NCBI GenBank assembly: GCA_003694635.1
Contig: RFKQ01000123.1
Location: 1-50,889 of the forward strand
DNA: 50,889 nucleotides
Source: Planctomycetota bacterium
Lineage (GTDB): Bacteria; Planctomycetota; J132
Direction of reading: 5' to 3'
Positions 5,268-47,645 of the stretch are shown one piece after another (within the stretch, counting starts at the first letter, position 1; every line of letters begins with the position of its first letter). Both the position numbers and the translations under genes were made by a program. A model generated the notes under the pieces. It saw nothing but the letters and a program-made list of their open reading frames with translations, did no database searches and was not told where the DNA came from.

Positions 5268-5283
5268 TGGAACAACTTTTGCT
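5268..5283 (+). promoter_or_regulatory. Sigma54-type -24/-12 promoter (TGGAAC-N5-TTGCT)
   Basis: TGGAACAACTTTTGCT matches TGGCAC-N5-TTGCW in spacing and at the GG/GC core. It is conserved as TGGAACAGTTTTTGCT at 36229. Confidence 0.5.
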
Positions 5284-5293
5284 TAAACAACTT

Positions 5294-5480
5294 TTCCACA
5301 TATCAGGGTTTTCTTCCTATCCCCTCGCCCTCGGGAGGCGGGTCGGTATAGGGCGAATCCGGGTGGGAGAAAACCCTCCCTATTTTACCGTATAAGCCAA
5401 CTCAACATCGCCGCTTATACATAAGGGTAAGGTACGCATTTATTTTACCTCCCCCCACCCTGGGTGGGGCATTCTATATT
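5294..5480 (+). ncRNA. Structured small RNA, copy 1 of a two-member paralogous family (unknown family)
   Basis: No credible ORF. Long-range stem GGGUUUUCU (5306-5314) / AGAAAACCC (5368-5376) encloses hairpin CUCGCC-loop-GGCGGG. A perfect 8-bp hairpin GUAUAAGC..GCUUAUAC follows, then terminal hairpin CCCCACCC-U-GGGUGGGG (5453-5469) followed by a weak, interrupted U-tract (CAUUCUAUAUU). The 5' domain and terminator are near-identical to 36255-36427. The 5' end is inferred from the promoter, not observed. Confidence 0.5.
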
Positions 5481-5831
5481 GTGTTCCTGTTAATAAATTT
5501 GATTTTTTAAACCAATCTTATTTTAGGCAATTTCCTTTAAACCATTCTCGCTTTCTCACTTTAGACAACTTCCTCTAAGAAAAAAACTTTTGACACAAGA
5601 TAAAGTAAAACCTCCTCCTGTGTTTTTTGAGCTATTTCTTTGATCGAATTTCCTTTCTTCTGACAAGAAGAAAGAGGGGCATCGATTTCTTTCCTGTTTT
5701 TAGCTATTTTTCGGTTCTATGGTTTTCCCATTTCGCTGTAATTTTTCTCATAGCGAGACTTCAGCTTTTTCAGTGCTTCACCCTGGCGGGAACTTGCAGC
5801 GTATGTTTTGCTTTTGAAATGAAAAATCGTG

Positions 5832-12129: not shown

Positions 12130-12306
12130 GATCAAAATTTTTCCTTCGGGCTATTGAATGAAACTGTGCCGGAGGAAACCTACTCGCTCCTGTCCAAAAA
12201 CCGTCAGTATAGCGTCGCTAAATCTGAACGAAATTCCTATTTTATGCAAATCAAGAGAGCATTCAAGAAAAAAACGATAATCTTTGTCCTTAAAGTCCTT
12301 AAACAA

Positions 12307-14092: not shown

Positions 14093-14478
14093 TTCATCTT
14101 CTGCTCTTAAATGAAAGCGCTTTTATGAGAATTGCTGAGGTGCATGTGTTTCCCTTCTTGAAAATGCGCTTGATTCAACAACATGTTGTGATAAAATAAT
14201 AAATAAAATGTTCTCTCCTCTCCACCACCGCATCTCTTCTCCTAAAAACAACCCCAAACAGGGGAGGTAAAGAAAAATCTTCTTCTTTCGTTCGTTAACC
14301 CTTCAGAATTTCCTATGAAGTTATCGTCCAAAAAAATAAAAAAGTTTATAAAAAACTCCATAAACCTTAAATTTTCTACCTAACCCGTGAAACGAAAAAA
14401 AGTAAAAAATGAATGGAAAAATGGAACAGAATCTTAAAACAAAGAATATCACCGCTCCGACCCAAGGGAGATATGCCA

Positions 14479-16422: not shown

Positions 16423-16426
16423 AAAA

Positions 16427-19400: not shown

Positions 19401-20671
19401 AAAATCTAGGCGCCCTCTCCCTCTCCAAACAACTCCTCCAACAACTCAACCACAACCCCAAATACCAACCCTTTGCCAACTATATTCCCACCATCTCCAA
19501 AACTCTCCAAAGCATCCGAATGCGCCTATTTGATACATACAAGGAAAAAGCGGAAAAAATCAAACGCATCGACAAGGAAAAAGCCAAAATTTACGTCAAA
19601 AAAGCCCTGAGCTTCGTCCACGACGATCAATCCGTTATTGAACTACTTGCCGAACTCAATACCCCTGAAAATATGGTCTACATTCCCGCCGGAGAATACC
19701 AGCGCTTCTACGAAGACCTCCCTCCCAACACCACAACCCCCGAACAGTACTTTCGCCTAAACTCTAGCATCTATATGGGCAAATACGAAGTCACCAACCA
19801 AGAATATTTCCAATTTGTCAAAGCCGGTGGCTACAACAACCCAAAATTCTGGTCCCCCCAAGGCTGGGCCCTCTTTCACGGCAAAACCAAAATCTACAAA
19901 CCCTGGCCAGAAACTTGGCAAAACGGCAAATACCCCGCCGGCACTGAGCGTTTTCCCGTCTCGGGAATTAGTTACTGCGAAGCAGAAGCCTACTGCCGCT
20001 GGAAAAGCCTAACTCTACCCGGTACCCGACTTCCTACCCATTGGGAATGGGAAGCCGCGGCGGGATTCCTGCAGCAAAAAAACTATATCTTTAAGGCCAG
20101 CCTCGCCTATCTAAAAGAATTAGAAGCAAAAAAAATTTCCCTCAACTTCCTCAAACTCCTCTCGGAAAAATCCAACCTCGCCCTTCAAAACCTAACCGTG
20201 ACCAAATCCCCCCTAGCTCCCATCTGGTTCCTCGTGGATAAATCTAGAAATCTTCAGCTGCAAATCGTCCGCGAAAACCAAGGACTAAAAGTCTATAAAA
20301 TTGTCCACCGACGGGCCCAATATCCCTTACTAGGCGGGAAGTGGAAAGCGGACTTTGGCCAAATTATCACCCAATACGAAGCCCCTAGACCCGTGGGGAA
20401 ATGGCGGCTGGATGTAAGCTTAACCGGCTGCTATGATATGGCGGGCAACGTCTCCGAATGGGTGAAGCGTCCAGACCTTAGAAATAAAGAAGAGGCCTCG
20501 TTCAAAGGAGCATCCTTCGATTCCACCAATCCAAAAGTGCACGCTCACGTTACCTACAACGAATTTATCGCCTCAAAAAGCGACAGATTCGAAGATGTAG
20601 GCTTTCGAATCTGTGTGGACACAAGCACCTATTTGCAGAAAAAGGAGACCAAGCGTGCAAAAAAGAAGTAA
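16427..20671 (+). CDS. Giant multidomain Ser/Thr kinase: T2SSE_N/MshEN-like repeats, zinc ribbon, Hanks kinase, TM, long helical region, C-terminal FGE-sulfatase (SUMF1) domain
   Basis: ATG at 16427, 5 nt after the upstream stop. Kinase motifs GQGGMGAVYLG, HRDIKPDNLM, DFGLAR, SPEQ. TM IAFALFVAVVVFLFS. FGE motifs YMGKYEVTNQEYFQFVKAGGY, RFPVSGISYCEAEAYCRW, LPTHWEWE, GCYDMAGNVSEWV, KGASF. Confidence 0.9.
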   Translation: MSNRKKWETSVVSKIALRKGIIDQETLQDCILELEISPEDSSLLEILESKTNIDAKTFKNLKAMVDFALSQDKDTQEDVLLAQILVDVQFLTQGQLENALLEQKRRLNQTGKSLKLEHILVEKGFISEERLQSVLQMMAKIPLQCEECGTKYVWGDFHNTNHARCQKCDFALVPYLEEEMDEAATLVADESGVQNPPSQSSIEQQDTLAANETAAADQPPHKAVRASEGNSTHSPAGTDSHDIGNLTSAETYAGNKIDTGDPAAQTSGGQKGTDPFIGQVLGEVKLIKKLGQGGMGAVYLGEHLHLARQEAIKILPREFANNPEQVTRFKREARAAGTLDSPHIVRVHHIGEHKGIHYISMEFVKGCSLQDIVNEKKKLDAKEAIEYMKQAAKGLIVAHKKDIVHRDIKPDNLMVTEEGVVKVADFGLARKTQDTMGVTQSGSILGTPYFMSPEQCRGEKTDIRSDIYSLGATFYYILTGQHPFVGDSPMTILLKHIHEEVPDIKKFAPEVPDSLKNIIEKMMEKLPEDRYQTLEEFLEDIKKLEEGEEIAMSEGKRRRIFRRRLRRAIAFALFVAVVVFLFSYKPGQSEAEIRQKLYQEKLQQAQQLLTAGDLENAIEQFEDARKQQNTSEIRHALLKSYTQLLKNLLKKADQQAPQLPKTKEKLVQLLQQAKSILRKAQNINPQFDLSSEEKRLFQHYLLLAQHQIKSAQKLFPLLKKKGAEKTRNLARLLIEEAKKYFQEARSLKGDKLALAQSHQKIFSLFIPLIASFLQDEDAKNAQSTLNQAKKFYPEGQKTLESWEAKIQQLVLLKQARALLLKAVRFIQPNISTLSPSTLPSIKNSLPKVSELQLNNAEKYANQAILKSPNYSLAAKVRAMLRSEQQRRLELRKQEQARLKRKEETTKKAKGYLSLLEEISKTHTLAQFPLEKAQLALKQLQTLIAAYQKDKFFQEAKNLEKNYLFHQHYFEIAQTYQNILAKIQENFLEDRGKNLGALSLSKQLLQQLNHNPKYQPFANYIPTISKTLQSIRMRLFDTYKEKAEKIKRIDKEKAKIYVKKALSFVHDDQSVIELLAELNTPENMVYIPAGEYQRFYEDLPPNTTTPEQYFRLNSSIYMGKYEVTNQEYFQFVKAGGYNNPKFWSPQGWALFHGKTKIYKPWPETWQNGKYPAGTERFPVSGISYCEAEAYCRWKSLTLPGTRLPTHWEWEAAAGFLQQKNYIFKASLAYLKELEAKKISLNFLKLLSEKSNLALQNLTVTKSPLAPIWFLVDKSRNLQLQIVRENQGLKVYKIVHRRAQYPLLGGKWKADFGQIITQYEAPRPVGKWRLDVSLTGCYDMAGNVSEWVKRPDLRNKEEASFKGASFDSTNPKVHAHVTYNEFIASKSDRFEDVGFRICVDTSTYLQKKETKRAKKK

Positions 20672-23600
20672 AATCTTGCTGAGCGGACTTCTCTTCTCTA
20701 TCCTATTCCTCTCCGGCTGCGGCGCCATCGGAACAGGGGTGGGCTTCTGGCTGGGGAGTAAAAAGAACTCCTCGCAAAACCAACCCCCTGTGGTCACCCT
20801 CTTAGAACCTGACAAGGATGAAGTGGACATCAACCACGTGGTGGTGATCCACTACCGACTGTACGATGTGGAAAGCAATCCTGCCAACGTCAAGGTAGAA
20901 TACAGCCTGGACCAAGGGAAAACCTGGAGCATCGCCACGGAAGTCGCCTCCTACCCCGGCTACACCAGCTCAGGAACCATCGGCCTCACCACCTCTCCCC
21001 TTGGCCAGGAACACTACTTCCTATGGAATTCCTTCCAAGACCTACCAGCGGTCAATATCAGCAACGTCCTCGTCCGAGTTAGCCCTACCGATGCCTCTTC
21101 CGGAAAAGCGGGAAGCGCCGATACTTCTATCCCCATCAACATCAAAAATGAATACACCGCCACCTTCGCCGGCACCCTTCCTCCCAATGCAATCGGCGCT
21201 ATCAAACGACCACGCTATATCTACTATGATAGCCAAAACAAAAAAATCTATTTCACCAATATCACCACAAACGCCATCCTCGCCCTAGATGAAAATGGTA
21301 CCTTAACCAGAGTGAGTGGCACCGGCCTCACCCCTTTCAACAGCGATTACGTTTTTGCCAAAAACGCAAACCTTGGCCTACCCGCCGCCATCGACCGGTG
21401 GGAAGAAGGACCATCTAAAGAAGATGCCATCGTTTTTGCCGACACCCTAAACGTCCGTATTCGCCAGGTCAATCTCATCACCGAAATCATCTCCACCTTC
21501 TCGGGCAACGGCGTTTTTGCCTTCTCCACCGATGTCCTCCCTTTCCAATCCTCCATCACCGCTCCTTGGGGAGTATCTGCCTTCGCAAATAACGGTAAGA
21601 TTGCGGGTCTTTTCTTCAGCGAACCGTTTACCCAAACCATCCGCTTTATCAACATTTCAGGTGGCCCCATTACCCTCTACCAAGGCGTAATAAAAGCGGG
21701 GAAACAACTTGAGCTACGCATTCCAAACATGACAATGAAAACCATCCTAGGAAACCCAGGAGCCACCCCTAGACCTGCGGATGGATTCGCCTGGACAACC
21801 GACAATCAACTCAACGGTATGGCCACCCTAAACTATCCCACCGCCCTTCGGTATACCCCTTCGCCTAAACGACTCCTCTATTTTATAGACAGCGAACAAA
21901 CCATCCGAGTGGTTAATCTGGACGCCAATGGCTCCAATGCAACCCTATACCCAAATGCCTACTACACCACCGCCACCCTTACCCTCAATGCTAGCGAAGT
22001 AAAAACTATTTTTGGCACACAAAGCCTATCCACCACCCTCAGCCAAGCTCTCAACTCCACCACCGCCAATATCTGGGACGTTCGATCAGATGGTAAAATC
22101 GAAGATATCTTTGTTCTCCCCAACGACCAAGATAACTCCGTCAACGACATCTACTTCACCGATGGCTTCGGCACCAGCAGCGTCTGGAAAATCGATGGCA
22201 AAACCGGCCTCCTCACCCGCGTGGCCGGCAATGGAGTCTTTGATCCCATCAACTTCCAAAGCGAAGGAAAGGCCACGGAAATACCCCTCGCAGGCCCCAC
22301 AGGGATTTATATTTACAACAAAATTCTACTTATCGCCGACCAAATCAACAACAGCATCCGCGCCGTAAATCTGGATACCACCCCCCAAGTCTTCTTCAAT
22401 AAAACCATCCAACCAGGAGATATGGTCACCCTGTATCGGGGAGAAACCGTCCAACAAACCGAACTTATTGAACCGAAAGAAGTGGCCGTAGATAATGAAG
22501 ATAAAAAAATCTATATTTTAGACATCCAAGGCCAAGTCCTCGAAATCGATGCCATCTCCCTCACCCAAACCCCCATCGCAGGCCTCGGGATTAAACCAGC
22601 TCCAACTACCGGAACCGATGAGTATGTTCCCGCTGCCCAAGTGCGACTTTCTCTACCAGAAGGAATAGCTTTTTGGCGAGGCAATGTAAACAACCAAACC
22701 ATGCGCCTGCTCTTTATCACAGATAACTCCTTCCCCAAATCCCGCATCCGCCTGGTAAATCTCGGCGATAATCCAATCCAGTTCGGCCCTATCACCAACC
22801 TCCAACCAGGACATATCGCCACCCTGATCGGCCAAGGGAACACCCAAACCGACGGAGGAACCACCTATGACCTCTCCCCGACCCCCGTCGAAAATGTCCG
22901 CTTAGCCAAACTGATCGATGTAGCGGTAGTAAAAGATAAAAATAACCTCCCCCTTGTCTATGTGCTGGAAGAAATTCAAGACTCAAATTCCGGAAGTTTG
23001 ATTTATCGGGTCCTTGCCTATAACCCCCGCTCTTCGAACGCTTCCTTCTACATCAACGGTATCAACGGCAATCAACGCACCATCGGAAGCGGACAAATCG
23101 CCGCGATCCTCGTCGGACAAAGAACAAATATAGACTTCTCCCAACCCCTAAACTTCCACCTAAGTAAACCCGGCATTATGGACATTATGGAAATCCAAAA
23201 TCAACCCATCCTCTTCCTCCCCCTCGCCGGAAGCCACGTTGTGGTGGGAGTAAACTATAGCAACAAAAACCAAAATGTATTTGGTCAAAACATTCTGCCA
23301 GGACAGGGGGCTGCGATTGCCGGCCAAAAAAGTATTACAGGAGGATTCTCCGGAGACTTCGGCCCCGCTAGCAACTCCCAACTCAACGAACCAACAGGGG
23401 TGACCTACTTGCCCAAAAACGCAGATTTCCAAGCGGAAATCTTGCTCATCGCCGACTCCGGCAACCAAAGAATCCGAGCGGTCTATGGCAACGCTTCCGG
23501 AGAATTTCAAAACTTAAGCGGGAAAATCCAAACCCTAGCAGGGACCGGCTTTGCAGGATTTAACGGGGATGTCTTCCCCCCAGAAGATACCTACTTTAAT

Positions 23601-23711
23601 TTCCCCAACCACGCCACCGGTCTACTGGTGAAAAATCTCCAAGGAAAACCAAGAATGATCATCTATGTCTCCGATCAAGGAAACACCAGAATTCGTCGAT
23701 TTGCAAGATAG
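20655..23711 (+). CDS. NHL-repeat beta-propeller lipoprotein, paralogue 1
   Basis: GTG at 20655 preceded by AAAGGAGA, overlapping the kinase stop by 17 nt. Lipobox FLSGC followed by GAIGTGVGFWLGS. Ig-like N-domain (NVKVEYSLDQGKTWS). Repeated NHL signatures DTLNVRIRQVNL, ADQINNSIRAVNL, ADSGNQRIRAV, DQGNTRIRRF. Confidence 0.8.
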   Translation: MQKRSKILLSGLLFSILFLSGCGAIGTGVGFWLGSKKNSSQNQPPVVTLLEPDKDEVDINHVVVIHYRLYDVESNPANVKVEYSLDQGKTWSIATEVASYPGYTSSGTIGLTTSPLGQEHYFLWNSFQDLPAVNISNVLVRVSPTDASSGKAGSADTSIPINIKNEYTATFAGTLPPNAIGAIKRPRYIYYDSQNKKIYFTNITTNAILALDENGTLTRVSGTGLTPFNSDYVFAKNANLGLPAAIDRWEEGPSKEDAIVFADTLNVRIRQVNLITEIISTFSGNGVFAFSTDVLPFQSSITAPWGVSAFANNGKIAGLFFSEPFTQTIRFINISGGPITLYQGVIKAGKQLELRIPNMTMKTILGNPGATPRPADGFAWTTDNQLNGMATLNYPTALRYTPSPKRLLYFIDSEQTIRVVNLDANGSNATLYPNAYYTTATLTLNASEVKTIFGTQSLSTTLSQALNSTTANIWDVRSDGKIEDIFVLPNDQDNSVNDIYFTDGFGTSSVWKIDGKTGLLTRVAGNGVFDPINFQSEGKATEIPLAGPTGIYIYNKILLIADQINNSIRAVNLDTTPQVFFNKTIQPGDMVTLYRGETVQQTELIEPKEVAVDNEDKKIYILDIQGQVLEIDAISLTQTPIAGLGIKPAPTTGTDEYVPAAQVRLSLPEGIAFWRGNVNNQTMRLLFITDNSFPKSRIRLVNLGDNPIQFGPITNLQPGHIATLIGQGNTQTDGGTTYDLSPTPVENVRLAKLIDVAVVKDKNNLPLVYVLEEIQDSNSGSLIYRVLAYNPRSSNASFYINGINGNQRTIGSGQIAAILVGQRTNIDFSQPLNFHLSKPGIMDIMEIQNQPILFLPLAGSHVVVGVNYSNKNQNVFGQNILPGQGAAIAGQKSITGGFSGDFGPASNSQLNEPTGVTYLPKNADFQAEILLIADSGNQRIRAVYGNASGEFQNLSGKIQTLAGTGFAGFNGDVFPPEDTYFNFPNHATGLLVKNLQGKPRMIIYVSDQGNTRIRRFAR

Positions 23712-36427: not shown

Positions 36428-36707
36428 ACACTAAATATAAACAAAATTCTCCGAAAAAGTTATTTACTTTTGCTCGTCTATCAAAAATATTTAAAAATGC
36501 CGAATGATGAGTAACATGAAAATCCGACAAGAGCTAAAGAACACGAACTTTTATCCCACTGCCTAAGGCAAAAAAGTTTCTATCAATTTTCTCTATCTTT
36601 GGTATAGTTTTTGCTAAAAATTCTAAAATCCCACGGAAGTCAAGCTCTTCAAGTGGGATCGGATTTCCCAACAGTTTTCCATCTTTATTTTTTCTTTGGA
36701 GGTAACA

Positions 36708-37796
36708 ATGGACGAAAAAACCAAAAAGCAAGCCCTGGATTACGCTTTGGCTCAGATCAAGAAAAAGTGCGGACCGGGCTCCATTATGCGCTTGGGGACA
36801 AAGCACACAGCAAAAGTGGATACCATCTCCACCGGCTCCCTCTCTTTGGACTATGCCCTAGGAATTGGAGGGGTCCCCAAAGGAAGAATTGTAGAAATCT
36901 TTGGCGCCGAGTCCTCTGGCAAAACCACACTGGCTTTACATATTATCGCTAACGTTCAGAAGAACAAAGGAGTAGCGGTATTCATCGACGCAGAACACGC
37001 CTTAGATCCCAACTATGCCAAGAAATTAGGTGTGAACTTGGATACCCTTTTGGTCTCGCAGCCGGACTCTGGAGAACAAGCCCTAGAGATAGCCTCTTTA
37101 CTTACCCAAAGCAACGCCATTGACCTATTTGTCATAGACTCCGTGGCAGCCCTTGTTCCCCAAGCCGAATTAAATGGTGAAATGGGAGATGTCCACGTTG
37201 GTCTGCAAGCTCGCCTGATGTCCCAAGCATTGCGCAAAATAACTGGATACATTCATAAAAGCAACACATGCGGGATTTTTATCAATCAAATCCGAGAAAA
37301 AATAGGCGGCTATGGCAACCCAGAAGTAACCACCGGTGGAAATGCTCTAAAATTCTACGCATCCATACGAATCGCCATCCGCAAATCCAGCGCCATCAAA
37401 GATGGAGATCGCTTAAAAGGACACCGGGCTGTGGCAAAAGTGGTAAAAAACAAACTGGCTCCTCCTTTTCGAAGCGCCGAGTTTGACATTCTGTTCGACA
37501 AAGGCATCAACTGGGCCGGTGATGTGCTGGATTTAGCTGTGGCAGAAGGAATCGTAACGCGAAGCGGATCCTGGTATTCCTACGGAAATGTAAAGCTAGG
37601 CCAAGGCAGAGATAAAGTGGTGGAGTTTTTGGAAGAAACCCCTTCCGTACTGGTGGATATCGAAAGCGATGTCTTGGCAAAAGTCTATCCACAAGAACTA
37701 GCGCCCTCTACGAATACCAAAACAGAAGGGGAAAAGGAAAAAAAAGAGGAAAAAAAACCAGAGAATAAAGCGAAGAAAAAAATTATCAAATCCTAA
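36708..37796 (+). CDS. recA: Recombinase RecA
   Basis: GGAGG before the ATG at 36708. [60 protein letters not shown] (Walker A), [40 protein letters not shown]. Unusual Lys/Glu-rich C-terminal tail. Confidence 0.97.
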
Positions 37797-37816
37797 ACCA
37801 GCCTTTAAAACCAAAG

Positions 37817-37841
37817 GGAGTCCTTTCTGAAAAAGGGCTCC
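37817..37841 (+). terminator. Hairpin downstream of recA (possible terminator)
   Basis: GGAGUCCUUU-CUGA-AAAGGGCUCC (10 bp with one G-U). Only a weak U tract follows. Confidence 0.4.
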
Positions 37842-38272
37842 TCTTGCCAACTCCCCCTCAAATTTTATAAAAAAAACCCTTTTGACAAAAAATTTTTTTC
37901 AAACAAGCCCCTACTAACCCTCCCTCAAAACCATTTTGTCAAAAAAATTTTCTAACCCATTTCTCAAAAACGTTCATACCTAAACCCACTTAGAAAAAGA
38001 AGGCTAGACTTTCCAACAAACATTTCCTCTCGGCCCCCTTTTCCCAAAAAGTTTCGTAGCTCCAACAATACCACCAAAATTTCTTACTTTTCCCCAACCT
38101 CCTTCCCTCTTCATCAATCCCTTTCCCTATCCGCACATTTTCTGAGAATCCAGCACCCCAAAAGCAAAACAAGCTCCCTCAACAACTCCGCAGACTCCAC
38201 AGCTCTGTCCTCCATAAACAGCAAAATTCCCCCCAAACTAAGATGGACTCCCGCAAAAATCGCAGACAACCC

Positions 38273-39403
38273 TTAAGTACTTTTTTCCCGATTCAAACGG
38301 CGAATGGATGATAAAAACTCCTTCAATCCTACTTCTTTGTTTTTCAAAAACCAATCTAGGTCGGGATATTGGAATTTCCTTGGATCTTCCTCTGCGTAAA
38401 GAAGCATAGCCCGCAGTTGCTTTAACAGCTGAGAGTCATATTCGCCGCCTAGATGGTACTTTTCCTTCTCTTGCCGAATGCGGTCCCACTCCTCCTCTGT
38501 GATTGAGCCGGAGGTTTTAAAATCCCGATAGCGATCCTGACAGCGATAAAAATCCTCTCTCTTCGCCTCAAACTCCAGTGCCAAACTCCCCAAACCATAC
38601 GGTCGAGCTCCTCCAATTTTATGGTGTAGATCCCCGCTTAAAGTCAGCTCAGTTTTTTTCCCTTTTAGGCTTTGATCCGGACATTCCACCTTAACCTCTA
38701 TCCCCTTCTCCAGCTCCAGGCAATAGAGCAAAACCCCTAATTCCTCTAAGGTAAGATTGTAAAATGTAAGGGCAAAATCAAACTCCACCCCCGCTGGGAG
38801 ATATTTAATTTTTCTATTTAATTTTGAGTCCTCCTTAAAAGGAGCGTTGGTCCAAATATTAGGTTGATGGAAATAGAATTTGCGCCGCCGACGATCGGAG
38901 TAAAAAGCCTCGTGCTTGGGTTGAGGCGCCCCAGGACGAATGGTAAGCGTCCCTCTACTCGGTGTTTTTCCACTCTTTTGTCTCAAAACTAAATCCTGGA
39001 AAAATACCTTGCCAGGAAACACCACATTTTTTGAATTTTCATCCCTCTGGGCCATACCAAACATAGCGCAAGCCATGCACAGTTGCTTGTCCGATTTGCA
39101 AGCGTTTTTTACCCCATCTCCTGCTACCACGTTGCAGCCTTTTCCTACCACTTCCACAAGGTTGCGAAGCATTCCCTTAAAAGAGGTGGCGGGAATGGCA
39201 TCTACTTTGGTATCAGCTACCTTCGTTCTAAAAGTATTTCCATCTCTTCCCCCAACAAAGATTGGGGTAATGGCCCGGGCGATTCCCTGAATTTTTCCCC
39301 CAAATCCTTGGTACTTTTCGTGGGTTTGCGGCTCATAGCGACGAACCTCCTCCGTAGGGCCAATAAGCCGGTAAGGGTTCCAGAAGGCTTCATTTTTAGG
39401 CAT
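38273..39403 (-). CDS. Type III RAMP protein (Cas7-group, TIGR03986-like)
   Basis: N-terminal FWNPYRLI, IPATSFKGMLRNLVEVV (RAMP motif), CMACAMFG zinc-knuckle/FG motif, C-terminal glycine loop HKIGGARPYGLGSL. AGAGGAG RBS. Confidence 0.7.
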   Translation of the reverse strand: MPKNEAFWNPYRLIGPTEEVRRYEPQTHEKYQGFGGKIQGIARAITPIFVGGRDGNTFRTKVADTKVDAIPATSFKGMLRNLVEVVGKGCNVVAGDGVKNACKSDKQLCMACAMFGMAQRDENSKNVVFPGKVFFQDLVLRQKSGKTPSRGTLTIRPGAPQPKHEAFYSDRRRRKFYFHQPNIWTNAPFKEDSKLNRKIKYLPAGVEFDFALTFYNLTLEELGVLLYCLELEKGIEVKVECPDQSLKGKKTELTLSGDLHHKIGGARPYGLGSLALEFEAKREDFYRCQDRYRDFKTSGSITEEEWDRIRQEKEKYHLGGEYDSQLLKQLRAMLLYAEEDPRKFQYPDLDWFLKNKEVGLKEFLSSIRRLNREKST

Positions 39404-39497
39404 ATCGATTTTACTCCTCTTTCATGGGATTAGAAAAGTTATACTGCTAAGATGGGATAGAAAAAAAGATGTCCCGTCCGGTTAAGAAGAAGTGGAA

Positions 39498-40034
39498 TTA
39501 GGAATATCCGACCAAACTATGGTAGCGAAGAAACTGAACTTCATGAGCTTGATTGCACCACGCTTCCAGAACAAGTTTCACTCGCTTTGCCGGCGTCTCC
39601 AGCGGATAGAAAATCGGGCGGGGAAGGATGGATTCTAACCAGGCGCCGGCAAGGCTCAAATCTTGTTTGCCGGCGGATTCTCCTTCGGAAGAGGTGAGGG
39701 AGTTTCTCTCACCCCAAAGAATATGAGCTTTTTGTTGCGTGGTAAGTCCCACCAGATGGGAGGAATGGTCCGCATCCAGTAAGCTCCAATCTTCCTCACC
39801 AAGAAAAACAGTGCGAAACACACCATCGGGCAATTTGCGCCACCTCCACTCCCCCGAAGGGCAAAATACCCGCCCCCAACTGTGATCATCGGAAATCCTT
39901 TCCTTCTGGAAGAAGTCAAAACACAGTTCGCTAGGCGAGGTGAGTACCATCCAAGCTCCTGAGGGAGGAGCCAGTTGTTGAAGCTTTGCTCTCCAATTTT
40001 CGAGGGATAGATCCTCGGCTTTTAAAACGGCCAT
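39498..40034 (-). CDS. Type III-D accessory protein, tentatively Csx19-like
   Basis: 178-aa Trp-rich ORF with a strong RBS (AAAGGAGGACCAAATG). It sits between two RAMP genes, the position Csx19 takes in III-D operons. No motif that I can recognise. Confidence 0.35.
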   Translation of the reverse strand: MAVLKAEDLSLENWRAKLQQLAPPSGAWMVLTSPSELCFDFFQKERISDDHSWGRVFCPSGEWRWRKLPDGVFRTVFLGEEDWSLLDADHSSHLVGLTTQQKAHILWGERNSLTSSEGESAGKQDLSLAGAWLESILPRPIFYPLETPAKRVKLVLEAWCNQAHEVQFLRYHSLVGYS

Positions 40035-40061
40035 TTGGTCCTCCTTTCCAGCATCAACAGC

Positions 40062-41033
40062 TTACCATTGATGGATAGCAGACCACCAGCGAACGGATTC
40101 TAAGTAGCGATGGAAATAAGGGGCAAGCTTTCCCAAAAGTCCGTCCTTTTTGATTCGATTCTCCTCCACCGTCAGCGGCAACAGATCGTAGCGAATTTGC
40201 ACCCCTCTGGCTTCCTTTTTGGCTTCCTTGAGGGAAAAACGGGGGAGATCAAAACGTTGGATTTGGTAATTCTCCCGCTCTTCTGAAGAAAGAAAGTCCT
40301 CCAATCCCAAAAGCTCGTCCTTAGGGTTTTGGTAATAAATAGCCTGAAACGACTGGAGCGTTCCTCGAATCCCCCCCATTCCTCTAGACTTATGAGCCCC
40401 TAAGCGTAGAAGCCCATCCTCTAGGTCCCAGAGCAAATAACCTAAGGCGCCTAGCATCCACAGCTCTGGGTTGCGCAAGGTAAGACTTGTGTGGAAGCTA
40501 CATTGAGCGGGCAAACATTCGTAGGTGAATAGAGCTCCCTTGACGGGTTTGCTGGTATAGCGATCAAGAGCAACACTTGTACGCTGCTCCGGGCTAACCT
40601 TTTTTTCCAAATAAGCGTCGGAGGTGGAGAGGCGCCCGGTAAAAAAAGCCGAGCCAAACAGCCTACAAGCTGGGCAAGAGTGGCCATAAATCTCAGCAGT
40701 GATTGTGGATTTGGTGTTATTTCTCGACGGTTTATCCTTTTTTTCTTTGAAAAACTGACTGCAACTGGCGGATTTTGGCTCCTTTGTCTCTCTCCCGTAG
40801 GGAACACAAACAGAGTCTTCCTTTAAGGTGCGGCAAATTCTCTCCATATGACTGCGCAATAGCCCCTTTAGAGAACTGCCTGGTAAAAAGCATTCTGGCT
40901 TATCCTCTCTTTTGGTCTGGATAAACGCCATATCCGCATCGCTTAGAGAAGCCATGCCGGATTTGACTAAAATGGGATCGGTGTTGACGATTTGCAGCTT
41001 AAGCTGAAAGACAGAATAAAGTTTTTTGAGCAT
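40062..41033 (-). CDS. cas7: Type III Cas7-family RAMP protein
   Basis: FLPGSSLKGLLRSHMERI, CPACRLFGSAFFTGRL, VALDRYT, glycine loop LGAHKSRGMGGIRG. Confidence 0.75.
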   Translation of the reverse strand: MLKKLYSVFQLKLQIVNTDPILVKSGMASLSDADMAFIQTKREDKPECFLPGSSLKGLLRSHMERICRTLKEDSVCVPYGRETKEPKSASCSQFFKEKKDKPSRNNTKSTITAEIYGHSCPACRLFGSAFFTGRLSTSDAYLEKKVSPEQRTSVALDRYTSKPVKGALFTYECLPAQCSFHTSLTLRNPELWMLGALGYLLWDLEDGLLRLGAHKSRGMGGIRGTLQSFQAIYYQNPKDELLGLEDFLSSEERENYQIQRFDLPRFSLKEAKKEARGVQIRYDLLPLTVEENRIKKDGLLGKLAPYFHRYLESVRWWSAIHQW

Positions 41034-41054
41034 AAAACTCTCCTTTCTAAGGAT

Positions 41055-41900
41055 CTACTGAGAAGCAAACCGCTGCTCCAGCGCTTTTGTTAATTCTGGA
41101 TAAGCATTCTCTGAGGGCTCTTTTTTAAGAAGCCAATTTAGCCAACTTTCTGCATTTTGAAAATCCACTTTATGAACCTCAATATCCTGGAGCTCGGCCA
41201 AACCTATCCCCCGAGAGGTCCCTTTCCCTAGCCGAACCCCCTCCTCCCATTCCAAAAGCACAGCGGTGATCAAGCACAGCTCATCGTTGGAGGGATTTTC
41301 CACCTCAAAGCGCACCCGAAATGAGGTGGAAGCCGGAACCACCTCGTAGTCAAATTTGAATTTATCCACCGCCGTTTCGCTGTCCCTGTCAATGACCACC
41401 CCATCGCGCCTTTCCAGGGTGCCCGCCCAATGTTCGAGCTGGCCATCCTCAAAAAAAACCCGACTTCCCCAAGCGGTGGAGCCAAACAGCTGGCAAATAT
41501 CACAGATTTTTGCCCCCTTGCCCCCACTCAACCCAAGCTGTTGATATCGCTCAAATCCAGAGCTTTTTCGCAGCTCCTCAGGAAGACGGCTCCAGTATTT
41601 TGTATTTGAGACACACTTGTCCAACTCTGCAGGCAAATTATCCGGATCCACCTGGAGCAAAAAACAGCTGCGCAGCCCTAGCAAATGAGCGATTTTCTCG
41701 CAATCGGAGCGGAATTTGCCCTTGAGCGTGGACCCGGGAAGGACCGGCTTACCATCCGAGGAAAGCAACACCCCAAAATCGCTGCCAGTGACTCCCTCAC
41801 GGCCAGAACCAATATGAAAGGGGGTACGGAAAACCAGCTTTCCAGAAACGAAATACTTTTCTTTCCAGCGAAGATGTTGAGCCAAGGATTCTGTCATCAT
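41055..41900 (-). CDS. cas7: Type III Cas7-family RAMP protein (Csm3/Cmr4-like)
   Basis: FHIGSGREGVTGSDFGVLLSSDGKPVLPGSTLKGKFRS, CDICQLFGSTAWGSRVFF, VVIDRDSETAV, glycine loop LGKGTSRGIGLAEL. Start at ATG 41900/41897 after AAAGGAG. Confidence 0.75.
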   Translation of the reverse strand: MMTESLAQHLRWKEKYFVSGKLVFRTPFHIGSGREGVTGSDFGVLLSSDGKPVLPGSTLKGKFRSDCEKIAHLLGLRSCFLLQVDPDNLPAELDKCVSNTKYWSRLPEELRKSSGFERYQQLGLSGGKGAKICDICQLFGSTAWGSRVFFEDGQLEHWAGTLERRDGVVIDRDSETAVDKFKFDYEVVPASTSFRVRFEVENPSNDELCLITAVLLEWEEGVRLGKGTSRGIGLAELQDIEVHKVDFQNAESWLNWLLKKEPSENAYPELTKALEQRFASQ

Positions 41901-41913
41901 CACTCCTTTCTGT

Positions 41914-42384
41914 TTAGGATGGGGATATAGATGGATCATTTTTATTTATCTGATATAGGGCATGGCAGTAAAAATGCTCCAATAACGTGGCACCTAGTTT
42001 TTCTTGAAGAAGTTTTTGCAAGTTTTGCTTTTCTTTTTTGGAGGGAAAACTCTTCTTTTCTAAAAAGGAATCCAACTTCTGTTTAAGATAACTTTTTTTC
42101 TGGAGGTGAAAAATATCAAGAAAAATTTCCCAAAACTCAACGCCCTTATTCTCTTTTTTCAACTTTTCCCTCTGATGGCTAGCATAGGAGATAGCTTCCT
42201 GTAAGCCCCCTAAAGTAAAATAATTTTGTATAGACTTAATCTGATGCTTGGCGGGAAAGTTAGAACTAGAAAGTCTACCTAGCTCTTCTTCTATGTAAGA
42301 ATAGGAATCTTTTTCTAAAAATTCTTGACAATCTTGGCTTTGCAAAATCTCTTGCACCTTTTGTAAAATTTTCTCACTCACCAT
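41914..42384 (-). CDS. Helical small-subunit-like protein (second Cas11-like paralogue)
   Basis: 156 aa, composition looks helical. AKHQIKSIQNYF resembles the Cas11 (T/S)QLRKFY motif. Confidence 0.4.
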   Translation of the reverse strand: MVSEKILQKVQEILQSQDCQEFLEKDSYSYIEEELGRLSSSNFPAKHQIKSIQNYFTLGGLQEAISYASHQREKLKKENKGVEFWEIFLDIFHLQKKSYLKQKLDSFLEKKSFPSKKEKQNLQKLLQEKLGATLLEHFYCHALYQINKNDPSISPS

Positions 42385-42412
42385 TTTTTATCCTTCGCAA
42401 AAAGCCAACGTT

Positions 42413-42772
42413 TTATTTCTTCGCCAAATAAAGGTATTCGTTTACTGCCCCATCGATATAAGCTCTGGCCAAGTAGAGAAGATGGGTGGAAGAAAGTTTT
42501 CCTTTTTCCATTTCTTGCAACCCCTTAAGCTCCTCTAGAAGTTCTTCTCCAAAGGAAGTCCATTTTCTTTGAGTATCTTTGCCTATTTGATTTTTGATAA
42601 AATTGAGGATTTCCGTAAACCTTGAGGTGGAGTAGGCCAAGGTCTGGAGTTTTCTTAGCTGGCTTTTTCCTTCCCCGCGAAAGGCGTCATAGAATTTTTT
42701 TCCCATCTCTACGGATTTTGGATAGATTTTTTTATCTATGATTTCATCCAGATATTTTGGGGATTTATCCAT
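42413..42772 (-). CDS. cas11: Type III small subunit Cas11 (Csm2-like)
   Basis: 119 aa, helical. KSQLRKLQTLAYS matches the Csm2/Cmr5 hallmark. The start overlaps the upstream stop (ATGGATAA). Confidence 0.5.
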   Translation of the reverse strand: MDKSPKYLDEIIDKKIYPKSVEMGKKFYDAFRGEGKSQLRKLQTLAYSTSRFTEILNFIKNQIGKDTQRKWTSFGEELLEELKGLQEMEKGKLSSTHLLYLARAYIDGAVNEYLYLAKK

Positions 42773-43949
42773 TGTTCTCCTCCTTTTTTACAGCGTATTG
42801 AACATGAAATGAGTGAGAGATCCAAACCTGACCAAAGCCCTCTTCTTGGCGTAAGCCAATGCCTTGGTGATGAATGTGGTGGAGGCGTTTGAGGTTTTCC
42901 TTGGAACGACGGGCAGAGCAAAGATAGACGCTGGAGGGTGCTATGGCCCACTCTTCTTCTTTTGGCATGCCATGGGCCATATTCCAACCCCAAACGGGTT
43001 GAAGCTCGCTGTAGGAGTAAAGGAGCTCGGCCGCTTCCAATCCTAGCCACCGCAAGATTTCTTTTTCTTGAGCTGTGTAGCGCAAAAAGGCATCCACCAA
43101 AATCGTGGGGGTTTGCACCGTCAGTGAAAAGATCCAACGCTCTTTTTGAACCTTACAATACTCTGCTGCTTCCTTGCTAAAGCTCTCCAGCGTTTGCTCA
43201 AACGCATCCAGAGAAGGGGGATTTTGGATCTGCAATTGCCACGAGCATTCCCCATAACCCCGAGTGCGACTTTTGCCCAAAAACAGAGGATAATGTTCCA
43301 ATTCCTTGAGCTTTTCAAACGCTTTTTCTTCCCATCTCCCTACACCCCGCAAGCAATAATCTGATGATTGATCTGGCAGCTGGACAAACTCCAAAAAGTA
43401 GAGGATTTGGGGACGAGCGGTTCCACTCCAGCGGTCGATTCCTACATGTGTCCGCTGCCCTTTGAAAAGTTTCACTTGCCGATTTTCCAGAAAGTACCCT
43501 TGCAGAGGTTTTCTGTCCTCATGGCAAACACTGCAGCGGTAGGAACTATCAAAATAGTTTTGAAAAGAGAGAGACTCTTTGCCCCGATGGCAAGTGCCCT
43601 TAAGCGCCTCTAGAAAGAGCAAATCCACCACCCCATGGTGGTTTCGGCCGTTTTTGTCCACCTCTGTCTCAAATCCGTTATATCGCTTGCAGCTATAGGC
43701 GGTCTTGGGAAAAGGAAAGGCCGTTTGTCCGGATTGACTGAGAAAGAGGTAGGGAAAGCGATTGCTCGCGCTAAAAATCTTTTGAAAATCCCCATCCATG
43801 CCGTTGACCGATTGGTAGAGGGCTGCGAACGCCCCTCGAAGAGTGGAGCCGGAGACGTACTCTAAGCTGGAAAGCATCTGATTGTTCCGACTCTGGGAAA
43901 GCACCAGAGGCGATCTTGGAATCAATTTAATCTCCACAAATTGCGCCAT
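42765..43949 (-). CDS. Cas5-group large RAMP (Csx10-like)
   Basis: LEYVSGSTLRGAFAALY near the N-terminus, Cys cluster (CKRYNG..CSVCHED), C-terminal glycine loop HHQGIGLRQEEGFGQVW. ~394 aa, in the Csx10 position of III-D operons. Confidence 0.6.
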   Translation of the reverse strand: MAQFVEIKLIPRSPLVLSQSRNNQMLSSLEYVSGSTLRGAFAALYQSVNGMDGDFQKIFSASNRFPYLFLSQSGQTAFPFPKTAYSCKRYNGFETEVDKNGRNHHGVVDLLFLEALKGTCHRGKESLSFQNYFDSSYRCSVCHEDRKPLQGYFLENRQVKLFKGQRTHVGIDRWSGTARPQILYFLEFVQLPDQSSDYCLRGVGRWEEKAFEKLKELEHYPLFLGKSRTRGYGECSWQLQIQNPPSLDAFEQTLESFSKEAAEYCKVQKERWIFSLTVQTPTILVDAFLRYTAQEKEILRWLGLEAAELLYSYSELQPVWGWNMAHGMPKEEEWAIAPSSVYLCSARRSKENLKRLHHIHHQGIGLRQEEGFGQVWISHSFHVQYAVKKEENNG

Positions 43950-43959
43950 AGTCAAGCTC

Positions 43960-44730
43960 CTAATCGAGTTCTTTGAGTTCTTTTAGATTGTCTTCTGCTC
44001 TTTTCTCAGGCTCAAATTGAGCCATTTTTAGAGCTTTGAGAAGGGGGGAAAGTTCCGAGCTTTCCACTTTCTCACCTTGGAATTGAATGCTAAGCTGATC
44101 TCTATCCACATTTAGCCTGCCTAACCCATGGCTTTTCCCTCCTCCCATTCGTTCTAAAGCCAGAAGAGAGGCCAGAAGTAGGGAGTACTCAAACGGCCAG
44201 GGCTCTCGGGCTAGAGCAATCTTATCTAATCCATCATCGTACGCAGGGTAGAGGTGCTCTTTGGGATGGATGGCTAAGATCCTTCCTCGAAAAGCAAGAG
44301 GGGGCACTTGCTCGGTAGAATAGAGGTGCCCGGCGATGGCGGTGCGGGCCACTCTATCGTACATATTCCTCGTGATCACTTCGTATTCAATTTCCTCTTC
44401 TTCTGGGGTAGCATTGGAGAAATAAAGTCGGTCGCCTTGGGATTTTGAACCAAACAGCCGATCGATCAGGTAAGGGCTAGGAGCGATGTACAACCTTTCC
44501 AAAGGCCAGTCTTGGTGAGGGTCGGCAATGTTCTCAAATCCTAGCGTGGCGGCGAGGCGCTCGGCGGCATATCGACAGCAGCCTTTGATGGTCGAACCAG
44601 GCAAAAATGGGCGACCATCTCTATCCTTTAGGACTTTTCTATCGATCAGCGAGCCGCCTTTGCCACTTCCAATGTGCAAGGGGGTCTGAAAGACAATACG
44701 ATAAGAAATTTCTAGCCGATACATAAACAT
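43960..44730 (-). CDS. cas7: Type III Cas7-family RAMP protein (Csm3-like)
   Basis: PLHIGSGKGGSLIDRKVLKDRDGRPFLPGSTIKGCCRYAAERL, LFGSKSQGDRLYFSN, glycine loop MGGGKSHGLGRL. Confidence 0.8.
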   Translation of the reverse strand: MFMYRLEISYRIVFQTPLHIGSGKGGSLIDRKVLKDRDGRPFLPGSTIKGCCRYAAERLAATLGFENIADPHQDWPLERLYIAPSPYLIDRLFGSKSQGDRLYFSNATPEEEEIEYEVITRNMYDRVARTAIAGHLYSTEQVPPLAFRGRILAIHPKEHLYPAYDDGLDKIALAREPWPFEYSLLLASLLALERMGGGKSHGLGRLNVDRDQLSIQFQGEKVESSELSPLLKALKMAQFEPEKRAEDNLKELKELD

Positions 44731-44747
44731 ATTCCAGGCTCCTTTAT

Positions 44748-46469
44748 TTAGAGAGATGGGACGTTTTCGATCAAATCCACCGCTTCGATCAAATCGAGCA
44801 GCGGCAATTCCAAAACGCCTTCATTGGATGAGGATTTGGGCTCACTTATCGAAAGCTGCATCAATTTCTCCAAAATGTGATCTTCGCCCTTACCATTGCC
44901 GTGGTTAGGATGCAACTCGTTCAGGGCCCCAAGGAGAGCGCGGAGCTGCTGTTTTTGCACTCTGGAGAGGAGGAAGACCAATTTTCTTCGCAAGGAATGG
45001 GAAGAGTGAAAGCAAATTTCCCGAATTTGATGGAGCTTGGAATTGGGCCATTTTTCCTCTTTGAGGCGCCGGGCACAGTCTAGAAGTTTCCTAAGCATTT
45101 CTCGGCAATAGGGCCGTTGGCTCAGCTGCACTCTTGAGAAGGAACGAGCAGAAGAGGAAAACCCCGCTTCCTCTCGAAAACTGAAGATATCCGACCAAAA
45201 GGGAAGTTCAGTGGTGTCCTGAAAGTCAATGTAGCAAGGGGCGGGATTTCCTCCATGCTGACTACCCCTAGCTTTGGCTTGCTTCAATAGCGCTTCCGCT
45301 TGCTGGAGAAGAATAGAAATATTCTGGTTGAGCTTGCCGATGGCCACGCCGAAGGAGAGAGTAAAACCGATTTTTTTAAAGATCGCTCTTTCCTTGCTAT
45401 AGAATTGTGCGACTTTCTTATCCTTTTCGGTGTATAGCTTTAGCTTTTTGGCACTAATCTCTTCAAATTTCTCAGAAATCTCCATCGCAACCGGCAGCAC
45501 CTTTGTGTGGGGCAGCAAGAGGATGAGGTCGTCGCCACCGAGGAGCAAAATTCGAGCATATAGATTTTGACCTATTCGACAATGCTTTCTAAGAGCCTCA
45601 TAGGTGGCTTCTTTGAGAGAGGAATCCACCACTTCTGAGAAGCATTGCAAAGCAGCCTCACTGTCCAACGCCTTCACCAGGCGGCCCATGGAGTTTCCAT
45701 CGCCGTAGAGCAAACCCATGCGCGGGAAATTTACTCGGTTTCCTTTCCGCTGGCTGTCTTGATTCACTTCCTCATCGTCTTTCGAAAAAAATACCCCTTG
45801 ATTCCACTCTTCCACACTCCCCCTCTGGAGAGATTGCCACCGGAATGTGGCAAATTCCTCCGGATAATGCTTCTGGACGTACTCGACAAAGCCCTGCCAT
45901 ATTTTTGGAACCCAAACGTTATCTTTTGCTCTCACAACGAAGCCTTCTTTGTAATAGAAATTCTGTTTACGACTACAAACGGCACAAAGCCATCGTTTTT
46001 CCCCAAACTCCTCGAGCAACTCCTCCGCCGCTTGCTGAAAGCAGCTTTGGCAGTCTTTGGAAAAGGGGGAACGCCCCGCGGGAACGCAGCGGTGGCGTTG
46101 CTTTTGGCGTGAAAGCTGGCGATGAGCCTGACGGAGAGTCTGGCGAAAGTCATTTGAACCGTATTCTTCAATGGTATACAAAAGCGTCGCTCCCCCACAG
46201 GTTTCTTGGTGATAGAGAGCCTTGAGCCTGTCCATGACGTTTTCAATAGTGGCGCGATCGGATGAGCTGAGAAAAAGACCACTTCCTCCATTGAGGTAGA
46301 CAATCGTTGCGTCGGGTAAGCTCTTTTTAAGAAAGCTTGCCGTTTCTTCTCTGTTCAAATGGTCAAGCAAAGCGCTCGCGCCTGCAATTTGAGCAAGCGT
46401 ATTTGTGGAAAAGAGGTACTTTTTGATCGAAGGCGTCTCCAAAAGAATAAGATATTTGGTCGCAGGCAT
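44748..46469 (-). CDS. cas10: Cas10 large subunit, minimal form without HD domain, cyclase motifs intact
   Basis: ATG at 46469 after GGAG. YLILLETPSIKKYLFSTNTLAQIAGAS (Palm1 / GIQxFI-like), Zn-finger CQSC..CAVC, LLYGDGNSMG, ILLLGGDDLILLLP (GGDD), helical C-terminal domain. There is no His-Asp motif N-terminal to Palm1. Confidence 0.85.
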   Translation of the reverse strand: MPATKYLILLETPSIKKYLFSTNTLAQIAGASALLDHLNREETASFLKKSLPDATIVYLNGGSGLFLSSSDRATIENVMDRLKALYHQETCGGATLLYTIEEYGSNDFRQTLRQAHRQLSRQKQRHRCVPAGRSPFSKDCQSCFQQAAEELLEEFGEKRWLCAVCSRKQNFYYKEGFVVRAKDNVWVPKIWQGFVEYVQKHYPEEFATFRWQSLQRGSVEEWNQGVFFSKDDEEVNQDSQRKGNRVNFPRMGLLYGDGNSMGRLVKALDSEAALQCFSEVVDSSLKEATYEALRKHCRIGQNLYARILLLGGDDLILLLPHTKVLPVAMEISEKFEEISAKKLKLYTEKDKKVAQFYSKERAIFKKIGFTLSFGVAIGKLNQNISILLQQAEALLKQAKARGSQHGGNPAPCYIDFQDTTELPFWSDIFSFREEAGFSSSARSFSRVQLSQRPYCREMLRKLLDCARRLKEEKWPNSKLHQIREICFHSSHSLRRKLVFLLSRVQKQQLRALLGALNELHPNHGNGKGEDHILEKLMQLSISEPKSSSNEGVLELPLLDLIEAVDLIENVPSL

Positions 46470-46856
46470 AGAAAAGCTCCATTTCTTAAATTGAAACCAA
46501 TTGCCCAAAGTTTACTGGAAAAATCTCCTCTGCTAGGGATTTTTACAAACCCCTCAAATATAAATTCGATTTCCCCCATGAGCTTTCTAACGCGATTGTA
46601 GGCCGCCTTTTCCAAAACGATAAAAGAAAAACGCTTTTTTTCCTAAACCTCAACGTCCAAATTCTACATCCACACAAAATAGAAAAAATTAACAAAATTT
46701 TTCAAAAATTTTGGAAATGTCCAAATAAAAGGGAGAAATTTTTTTCGAAGAATAGAAATTTACGGAATTCTATGTATAATAAAAATAAACGCTGGAATAA
46801 GCGTCAAATAAACGAGGAGGTTTCGCAAATTTTTGAGAAATAGAGAAGAAAAGTAA

Positions 46857-47645
46857 ATGATGGAAACTCCAAAAAATATCCGAGAACTCTCCCGCATCCT
46901 ACATAGGGCTAAAAGCACAGAAGAACAAAGCCGCTTGCTCAAAGAATTTGCCCAAAAAGTCCCCCTGGTTGTCTTAGATTTGCTGCTACTGGAGATTCAA
47001 GAAGACGCTAAAAATGCCGTGCTTACGGCCCTAAACCTGTTTTGCCCCGACCTCTTTCAAAAGTACATCAATCGACAAAATTTTGTGGTCCCCTCTACCC
47101 TAGAGGAATTGGAGGAAATCCTGGAAAGCCTGCCAGACAATCGCAGCCGAGTGGGATTGCTAGAAGCTACCAAACGAGAAAAACCGGAAATGTTCCAAAG
47201 ATTTTTCGCCAAAAAACGAGAAGAACAAAAAAAATGGGAAGTCAGCCAACCCACCCTAGAAGAGATAGAAGTGGATGAGGAAACCACAGAAATTGAAATC
47301 GAAGAGCTGGAATCCCCCGAAGAAGATAAGAAAGCGACCTTGAAACAACAAGCAGAAGAAAGCGAAAACGAAAACAAAACCCTAGAAACCAACAAAAATC
47401 TGGAAGATCTCGAACCCGAGCCAGAAGAAACTTCCAACTCGTCCACAACCTCCAACGAACAAGAAGAAACCATTTCCCCCCCTTGCCCCATCCAAGACGC
47501 CTCAGAAGAAACCACCACCCTTCAAGAGACAAACAATTCTCCCTCCCACCAAGAGGAAGAAACAAACTCAACACCCTCTTCATCCGTTCTCTCCGAACCT
47601 TCTTCTAGCTCATCCCCCGATGAAGACCTCTCGCCAGAAAATTAA
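46857..47645 (+). CDS. Acidic Glu/Ser/Thr-rich hypothetical protein
   Basis: 262-aa ORF divergent from cas10. Helical N-terminal ~110 aa, then a low-complexity acidic tail. Confidence 0.5.
   Translation: MMETPKNIRELSRILHRAKSTEEQSRLLKEFAQKVPLVVLDLLLLEIQEDAKNAVLTALNLFCPDLFQKYINRQNFVVPSTLEELEEILESLPDNRSRVGLLEATKREKPEMFQRFFAKKREEQKKWEVSQPTLEEIEVDEETTEIEIEELESPEEDKKATLKQQAEESENENKTLETNKNLEDLEPEPEETSNSSTTSNEQEETISPPCPIQDASEETTTLQETNNSPSHQEEETNSTPSSSVLSEPSSSSSPDEDLSPEN

Follow-up and report, generated by a model that had tools for sequence, protein, structure and literature searches.

An unfused type III-D CRISPR-Cas effector operon with no adjoining array, cas6 or CARF gene on a planctomycete contig

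Can a type III CRISPR-Cas effector operon be functional when no CRISPR array, no cas6 and no gene for a signal-activated effector is found beside it, and from where would it obtain its guides? This question is raised by contig RFKQ01000123.1 of an uncultured Planctomycetota bacterium (metagenome-assembled genome GCA_003694635.1), which was analysed over its entire length of 50,889 bp (hereafter the window; all absences reported below refer to these 50.9 kb). Nine co-directional minus-strand open reading frames (ORFs) at positions 38273-46469 form what is, judged from their sequences, a complete, intact-looking type III-D effector module of the unfused III-D1 form. In the reading that we favour, with a probability of roughly 0.7, the operon is a functional stand-alone III-D1 interference module in a planctomycete chromosome, which obtains its CRISPR RNA (crRNA) and Cas6 from elsewhere in the genome.

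Every one of the nine ORFs is full length and free of frameshifts and has its own start and stop codon, i.e. there is no Cas7-Cas5-Cas11, Cas7-2x or Cas7x3 fusion. They overlap or are spaced by 17-30 nt, the single exception being a gap of 94 nt before the last gene. The module was assigned to III-D1 because Cas7, Cas5 and Cas11 are separate genes (definitions: PMC13294483). The features of the operon, given in gene order and preceded by the upstream region, are as follows.

46470..46856, no strand: AT-rich divergent intergenic region upstream of cas10, presumed site of the operon promoter
44748..46469, minus strand: cas10, 573 aa, with profile matches and palm motifs
43960..44730, minus strand: first cas7, 256 aa, candidate catalytic residue D30
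42765..43955, minus strand: csx10 (the Cas5 variant that marks III-D), 396 aa from a TTG start or 394 aa from the ATG at 43949
42413..42772, minus strand: cas11 small subunit, 119 aa, with an 8-nt overlap with the csx10 stop codon
41914..42384, minus strand: second small subunit, putative Cas11 paralogue, 156 aa, predicted to be all-helical
41055..41939, minus strand: second cas7, 294 aa, or 280 aa from the ATG at 41897, candidate catalytic residue D54
40062..41033, minus strand: third cas7, 323 aa, candidate catalytic residue D34
39498..40034, minus strand: csx19, 178 aa
38273..39403, minus strand: TIGR03986-like cas7, 376 aa

The ATG of cas10 at 46469 agrees with the N-termini of homologues and is preceded, 8 nt upstream, by GGAG. 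A sigma-70-like sequence, which is a consensus match only, lies upstream of this gene at 46705-46676 on the minus strand, and repeat searches detected no repeats in the region 46470-46856.

An earlier note on this DNA, made from the sequence without database searches, had described nine tightly packed minus-strand genes; all of these ORFs were found at the positions that it gave, with short gaps or overlaps between them. Profile searches with hidden Markov models (HMMs), the check that it had proposed, support every one of its gene identities and the order in which it placed them. Its statement that this order matches published type III-D systems was also borne out, since the layout is that of unfused III-D1 and the same nine-gene order, including the small ORF after cas11, occurs in about 60 of the 80 related loci described below.

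The Cas10 protein was matched by Pfam Cas10-Cmr2_palm2 (1.1e-14, 55 bits against a cut-off of 27), Pfam GGDEF (5e-5) and PADLOC Cas10 (2.4e-54). When the single sequences of Cas10, Csx10 and Csx19 were compared with the PDB using phmmer no match was obtained; with a clade profile of Cas10, the best solved match was the Cas10 of the Synechocystis III-Dv complex (8s9t_C, 3e-41). The protein opens directly with the Palm1 motif common to homologues of 500-550 aa and contains a Zn-finger-like CxxC...CxxC. In Palm2, both D257 and GGDD (311-314) are present, and these residues are 100% conserved across the 80 related loci. No HD family of Pfam or NCBIfam matched Cas10, and thus, lacking an HD nuclease domain, it is predicted to have no DNase activity.

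All the cas7 genes gave matches to RAMPs, and three of the four Cas7-type subunits carry an Asp in the loop that follows an HIGSG-type motif. The first Cas7 (Pfam RAMPs 6.6e-20; PADLOC Csm3/Cas7_IIId 2.8e-22) has D30, conserved in 85% of 69 orthologues and aligned with D33 of the III-Dv Cas7-2x. The second (TIGR02581 Csx7 3.2e-30; Pfam RAMPs 8.6e-27) matches the III-Dv Cas7-2x chain 8s9t_D at 3.2e-12, its D54 aligning with D33 of that chain and being conserved in 88% of 63 orthologues. The third (TIGR02581 4.1e-30; Pfam RAMPs 1.2e-19) has 9wxh_D, Cas7-11 and 8s9t_D as its PDB matches and carries D34, which is conserved in 84% of 57 orthologues. In the Cas7-2x of Synechocystis, it was the Asp cluster D29/D31/D33 that was mutated (PMC11026444). 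The TIGR03986-like Cas7 was matched by PADLOC Csm3/Cas7_IIId (9.2e-42) and by TIGR03986 at 7.6e-39, with 134.6 bits, which is under the cut-off of 161; the protein has 376 aa compared with the 568 positions of the model, and its orthologues in the clade are similarly short. Its PDB matches are 9wxh_D, Cas7-11 and 8s9t_E, and the conservation profile of its orthologues revealed no clade-conserved Asp in the N-terminal loop.

Csx10 aligned over its full length with TIGR02674 (2.5e-36; 125.7 bits, below the curated cut-off of 177.3) and was also detected by PADLOC Cas5_IIId (3.2e-38) and Pfam Cas_Cmr3 (2.3e-5). Csx19 scored 38.3 bits against TIGR03984, over the cut-off of 35, and 1.4e-43 against the clade HMM; in III-Dv this protein is an essential core structural subunit placed between Cas5 and Cas10 (PMC11026444). 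Of the eight operon proteins tested, seven retain 85-100% of the columns that are conserved in the clade.

The 119-aa small subunit matched PADLOC Csm2 (2.6e-8) and an HMM of 52 proteins from the same position in relatives (2.4e-32). The 156-aa protein, proposed earlier to be a second Cas11-like protein, matched nothing in Pfam, NCBIfam or PADLOC. It scored 4.6e-8 against an HMM of the ORFs found in the same slot, between cas11 and cas7, in 18 related operons, and comparison of this conserved slot family with the Cas11 family by hhalign gave a probability of 91.7% (E 7.8e-7), and its sister families align at 96.8-98.4%. The single-sequence AlphaFold2 model of the protein is all-helical and of low confidence (predicted local distance difference test, pLDDT, about 59), and Foldseek comparison of this model with the PDB returned nothing significant. 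For these reasons its Cas11 identity rests on the profile-profile comparison, which upholds the proposal and predicts that the protein is a second Cas11 paralogue.

A Cas10 profile search, which gave more than 515 matches, was used to retrieve 80 related loci, and these span Desulfobacterota, Planctomycetota, Chloroflexota, Poribacteria, Latescibacterota and other phyla. A census of neighbouring genes was made for the 32 relatives with the whole operon, at least 3 kb of upstream and at least 2 kb of downstream sequence. An array adjoins the operon in 11 of them, always within about 3 kb, a cas6 gene in 18, a CARF gene in 25, and cas1 or a reverse transcriptase (RT) gene in 6. The CARF families represented are APE2256/ring-nuclease-like, Csx14/NE0113, TM1812, TIGR02710 and CARF-histidine kinase. 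The presence of arrays, cas6 and CARF genes beside the relatives therefore identifies the clade as a bona fide crRNA-guided, CARF-signalling system. Loci L021, L071 and L020 were considered as examples of bare operons and dropped, on account of other CARF families (NCBIfam, Pfam) in L021 and L071 and a weak match in L020.

The arrays beside III-D1 operons (L011, L012, L013, L018, L026, L030, L050, L053, L062, L067, L069 and L078) have repeats of 36-37 nt. The 3' end of the repeat, ATTG[A/C][A/G]AC, is conserved across phyla, as seen in GGGATTGAGAC, GGGATTGCGAC or GGATTGAAAC, which implies a common 8-nt 5' tag of the crRNAs.

Two III-D1 operons, L056 and L059, are present in the metagenome-assembled genome (MAG) of Gemmatales bacterium KatS3mg105. 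L059 is bare and located between the genes of histidinol dehydrogenase and arginine dihydrolase; upstream of L056 lies a Csm6 HEPN gene, and downstream of it a gene for an IS66 transposase. Of the relatives, L059 closely parallels the operon of the window. Such a pair in one MAG is what trans sharing of components would look like.

Some of the related loci display further variation. In L002, positions 3487-5529 (plus strand) encode Cas7 and Csx10 as one 680-aa ORF, a Cas7-Cas5 fusion that resembles an intermediate on the way from III-D1 to the III-Dv Cas7-Cas5-Cas11 fusion, and an RtcR-type CARF gene follows the operon. In L071 (13539-16335), a gene for a CARF (Csx14/NE0113-like)-histidine kinase fusion comes directly after the III-D1 operon, and the next gene encodes a sigma54-type response regulator. 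NtrC-like regulators were found beside 11 of the 80 loci, and their occurrence together with the CARF-kinase suggests a two-component transcriptional output that senses cyclic oligoadenylate (cOA).

The window itself was searched for the same components. No CRISPR array was detected in it by TRF, a direct-repeat search or a k-mer array finder. Solitary repeat ends of the clade type (GGRATTGMRAC) gave three one-mismatch matches compared with 8.4 expected, all of them inside genes, and Rfam and ARAGORN found no structured RNA or tRNA over the window. HMMs of accessory proteins were built from the neighbours of the relatives (two Cas6 families, four CARF families, Cas1 and RT), and in all six-frame ORFs of at least 40 aa none of these gave a match better than E=0.1; for those of Cas6, Cas1 and RT there was none better than E=0.5. 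Nothing was found in the window by tblastn for Cas6, CARF, Cas1 and RT, the matches in intergenic DNA being at chance level only, with no remnants. Pfam, NCBIfam and PADLOC scans of the main ORFs of at least 120 aa, and of some smaller ones near the contig ends, identified no CARF or SAVED domain, and no transposase or integrase was seen in the scans of the contig genes. The earlier note had claimed just these absences (array, cas6, cas1/cas2, RT and CARF/SAVED genes; transposase or integrase), and with repeat finders, HMMs, tblastn and contig scans all negative the claims stand.

That type III effector modules can stand alone is well known. Since array, cas6, adaptation genes and CARF gene are all absent from the contig, the crRNAs, the processing enzyme and any messenger-activated effector would have to be supplied in trans. 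Provision of crRNA in trans, one of two readings that the earlier note offered, is standard for type III modules (PMC12669027, PMC5576922) and agrees with the retention of the catalytic residues. In the 2025 classification, Cas6 supplied in trans serves most type III systems, and reliance on Cas6 and crRNAs in trans is the norm for type III modules (PMC12669027).

We infer a mechanism in which a Cas6 encoded elsewhere would cut pre-crRNA derived from a distant array. By homology with III-Dv, the nine proteins would assemble around one Cas6-processed crRNA, with Csx10 (Cas5), Csx19 and Cas10 at its 5'-tag end, the four Cas7-type subunits lining the guide and a minor filament composed of the two distinct Cas11 proteins. 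Complementary RNA would be bound and then cut at the three Cas7 subunits that have a catalytic Asp. The Cas10 palm (GGDD) probably makes a nucleotide second messenger, cOA, for CARF effectors encoded elsewhere; if no such sensor exists, the complex would act by RNA cleavage alone.

Should this standard reading be true, the operon would represent a divergent planctomycete example of the widespread III-D1 form, for which we know of no biochemical study. The unfused III-D1 is the ancestor of III-Dv, III-D2 and Cas7-11. It would also mean that bare modules persist between housekeeping genes even where CARF genes, cas6 and arrays usually adjoin the operon.

Several observations weigh against a functional module that is supplied in trans. 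No array, cas6 or CARF gene of this genome was seen, the one contig being all that was covered, and supply in trans is therefore inferred. Bare operons are rare, being found in only two of the 32 relatives (L032 and L059); the bare operon is thus a minority state in the clade, yet not unique to the window. The Cas10 has no close relative, the best identity in 5.8 billion clusters and 185,579 species genomes being 34%. It retains 83% of the clade-conserved positions, where the median is 96%, and just 2 of 79 relatives deviate more. It departs from the clade consensus at 8 of 47 positions of high conservation (27, 29, 250, 256, 321, 324, 339 and 383), the substitutions including E27Q and R29A, which change the Palm1 motif EIRGAS to QIAGAS, and P383N. 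Given these deviations at conserved positions, the cyclase competence of the protein is not assured.

Such deviations might be expected of an orphan remnant, i.e. an inert, decaying module with no compatible crRNA source, from which a deletion or rearrangement removed the array, cas6 and CARF genes. This history would account for the lack of any such neighbour in the window, while 30 of the 32 relatives have an array, cas6, CARF gene or cas1 adjoining, and for a Cas10 that ranks with the clade's most divergent at conserved sites; in complete genomes, moreover, about 12% of the cas clusters are far from or without arrays (PMC7145637). We nevertheless consider it unlikely. The nine ORFs show no sign of truncation or frameshift, the catalytic Asp residues and GGDD are kept, the other subunits retain 85-100% of the conserved columns, and the flanking non-coding DNA contains no pseudogene fragments of CARF or Cas6 genes. 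In addition, the nearest relative, L002, partly shares several of the changes in Cas10, and this suggests divergence of the lineage rather than decay. Loss need not be invoked at all if the locus is an ordinary complete III-D locus that was cut by the assembly, so that its array, cas6 or CARF gene would lie just past the end of the contig, at more than 4.4 kb upstream of cas10. Repeats often break assemblies; this contig ends 4.4 kb upstream of cas10, an independent 11-kb Logan contig breaks 635 bp upstream of the same gene, and several relatives have cas6, CARF genes or arrays on this side. However, the arrays of the relatives lie within about 3 kb, and their cas6 and CARF genes directly adjoin the operon and are co-directional with it, whereas here two divergent non-cas genes (those of a 262-aa acidic protein and a secreted-type protease) precede cas10 and the other side consists of 38 kb of unrelated genes. 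We therefore regard a truncated ordinary locus as improbable.

The other reading of the earlier note was a repurposed module working without CRISPR-derived guides, i.e. independently of guides or with another cellular or mobile-element RNA, in regulation or non-canonical defence. Apart from the absence of an array, cas6 and CARF gene from the contig and the unusual Cas10 substitutions, we found nothing that supports it. The architecture and motifs of the operon are indistinguishable from those of relatives located beside arrays, it has neither a novel fused domain nor a conserved neighbour of an unusual kind, and the flanks contain no candidate for a structured or repeated RNA; we therefore judge repurposing to be very improbable. 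Just as little credence is given to the case in which the genome as a whole has no array, Cas6 or CARF/SAVED protein, yet encodes an intact complex under selection that is loaded with non-CRISPR RNA or acts without cOA. If guides and sensors were indeed lacking genome-wide, the module would serve a purpose other than canonical adaptive immunity, E27Q and R29A could reflect a changed output, and the presence of an intact cyclase-bearing effector would need a new explanation.

The stand-alone module supplied in trans, which we favour, shares with bacterial III-D1 loci (PMC11026444, PMC13294483) its gene content, gene order and second small-subunit ORF, as well as an HD-less Cas10 with GGDD and the conserved catalytic Asp. 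The identity to these loci is only 25-34% (Cas10) to about 46% (Cas7), and most of them have an adjoining array, cas6 or CARF gene, whereas the window operon has none. The nearest locus, L002, differs in that its Cas7 and Csx10 are fused.

The closest solved relative of the window Cas10 and Cas7 genes is the III-Dv complex of Synechocystis sp. PCC 6803 (PDB 8s9t), which likewise has Csx19 as a core subunit and GGDD in Cas10. The order of its fused domains (Cas7-Cas5-Cas11, then Cas7-2x, Csx19 and Cas7-insertion) mirrors the gene order of the window. In contrast to the separate subunits and two Cas11 paralogues found here, III-Dv has fused subunits and a single Cas11 domain, and its Cas7-insertion comprises 795 aa, compared with 376 aa for the TIGR03986-like counterpart. 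The III-Dv operon lies beside cas6-2a, adaptation genes, a 56-spacer array and Csm6/Csx1, none of which is present in the window (PMC11026444).

Array-less III-B modules (III-B/I-F of Marinomonas mediterranea; the Cmr module of Sulfolobus islandicus REY15A) are likewise without an array or Cas6 of their own, and have been shown experimentally to use crRNAs processed by another system of the same genome (PMC5576922). They belong to the Cmr subtype and have a Cas10 with an HD domain, and the trans supply, shown by experiment there, is putative here. The III-G and III-H subtypes, which are reduced variants of type III, also have no adaptation module, and for III-G, which lacks arrays, recruitment of crRNAs in trans is presumed (PMC12669027). 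Both have lost the catalytic Asp of Cas7 and have an HD-active Cas10 and other signature genes, e.g. Csx26, whereas the window operon keeps the Asp residues, has no HD domain and carries Csx10 and Csx19.

The operon had been described as flanked by recA and a secreted protease, and both were found: recA (36696-37796, plus strand) on one side and, on the other, a trypsin-like protease with a signal-peptide-like N-terminus, with the gene of the 262-aa acidic protein placed between it and cas10. The best named relatives of the RecA protein are from MAGs of Planctomycetota (80% and about 70% identity), and no relative of the window at ≥90% was obtained in a cluster look-up. The convergent recA and last cas gene are separated by an unusually long, pyrimidine-rich spacer of 476 nt (37797-38272), in which no ORF, repeat, Rfam match or cas pseudogene remnant was detected.

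The N-terminal half of the 262-aa protein (46857-47645, plus strand, divergent from cas10) is helical, and its tail is acidic, Glu/Ser/Thr-rich and of low complexity. The protein matched no family and has no homologue beside the related operons, and its single-sequence AlphaFold2 model is helical and of low confidence (pLDDT about 59). This protein, the trypsin-like protease and a caspase-domain protein were considered as type III accessory effectors and rejected, because none of them has a sensor domain or a homologue beside related operons, and each has either secretion/lipoprotein signals or acidic low-complexity sequence. Outside the operon, generic kinases are the only proteins of the window with homologues beside related operons.

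The remaining genes of the contig include those of HU, MreB/MreC, an aminotransferase, Ser/Thr kinases and giant VWA and NHL proteins. About 26 kb from the operon, adjoining mreC/mreB, a 678-aa prokaryotic Argonaute (pAgo) is encoded at 10099-12135 (minus strand); it matched PADLOC pAgo PDLC02396 over its full length (1.8e-78) and no Pfam family, even at E 0.1. A metal-resistance-like cluster at 1606-3241 (minus strand) comprises a MerR-family regulator, a MerT-like transporter and a CopZ-type zinc-binding/BFD-like [2Fe-2S] protein. The region 14413-23711 (plus strand) encodes the caspase-domain (Peptidase_C14) protein (14413-16422), which has a lipoprotein-type signal and no sensor domain, a 1440-aa Ser/Thr kinase-FGE-sulfatase fusion, and NHL-repeat proteins of about 1030 aa. 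These giant genes, which form a cluster of a type characteristic of planctomycetes, are not linked to the CRISPR module.

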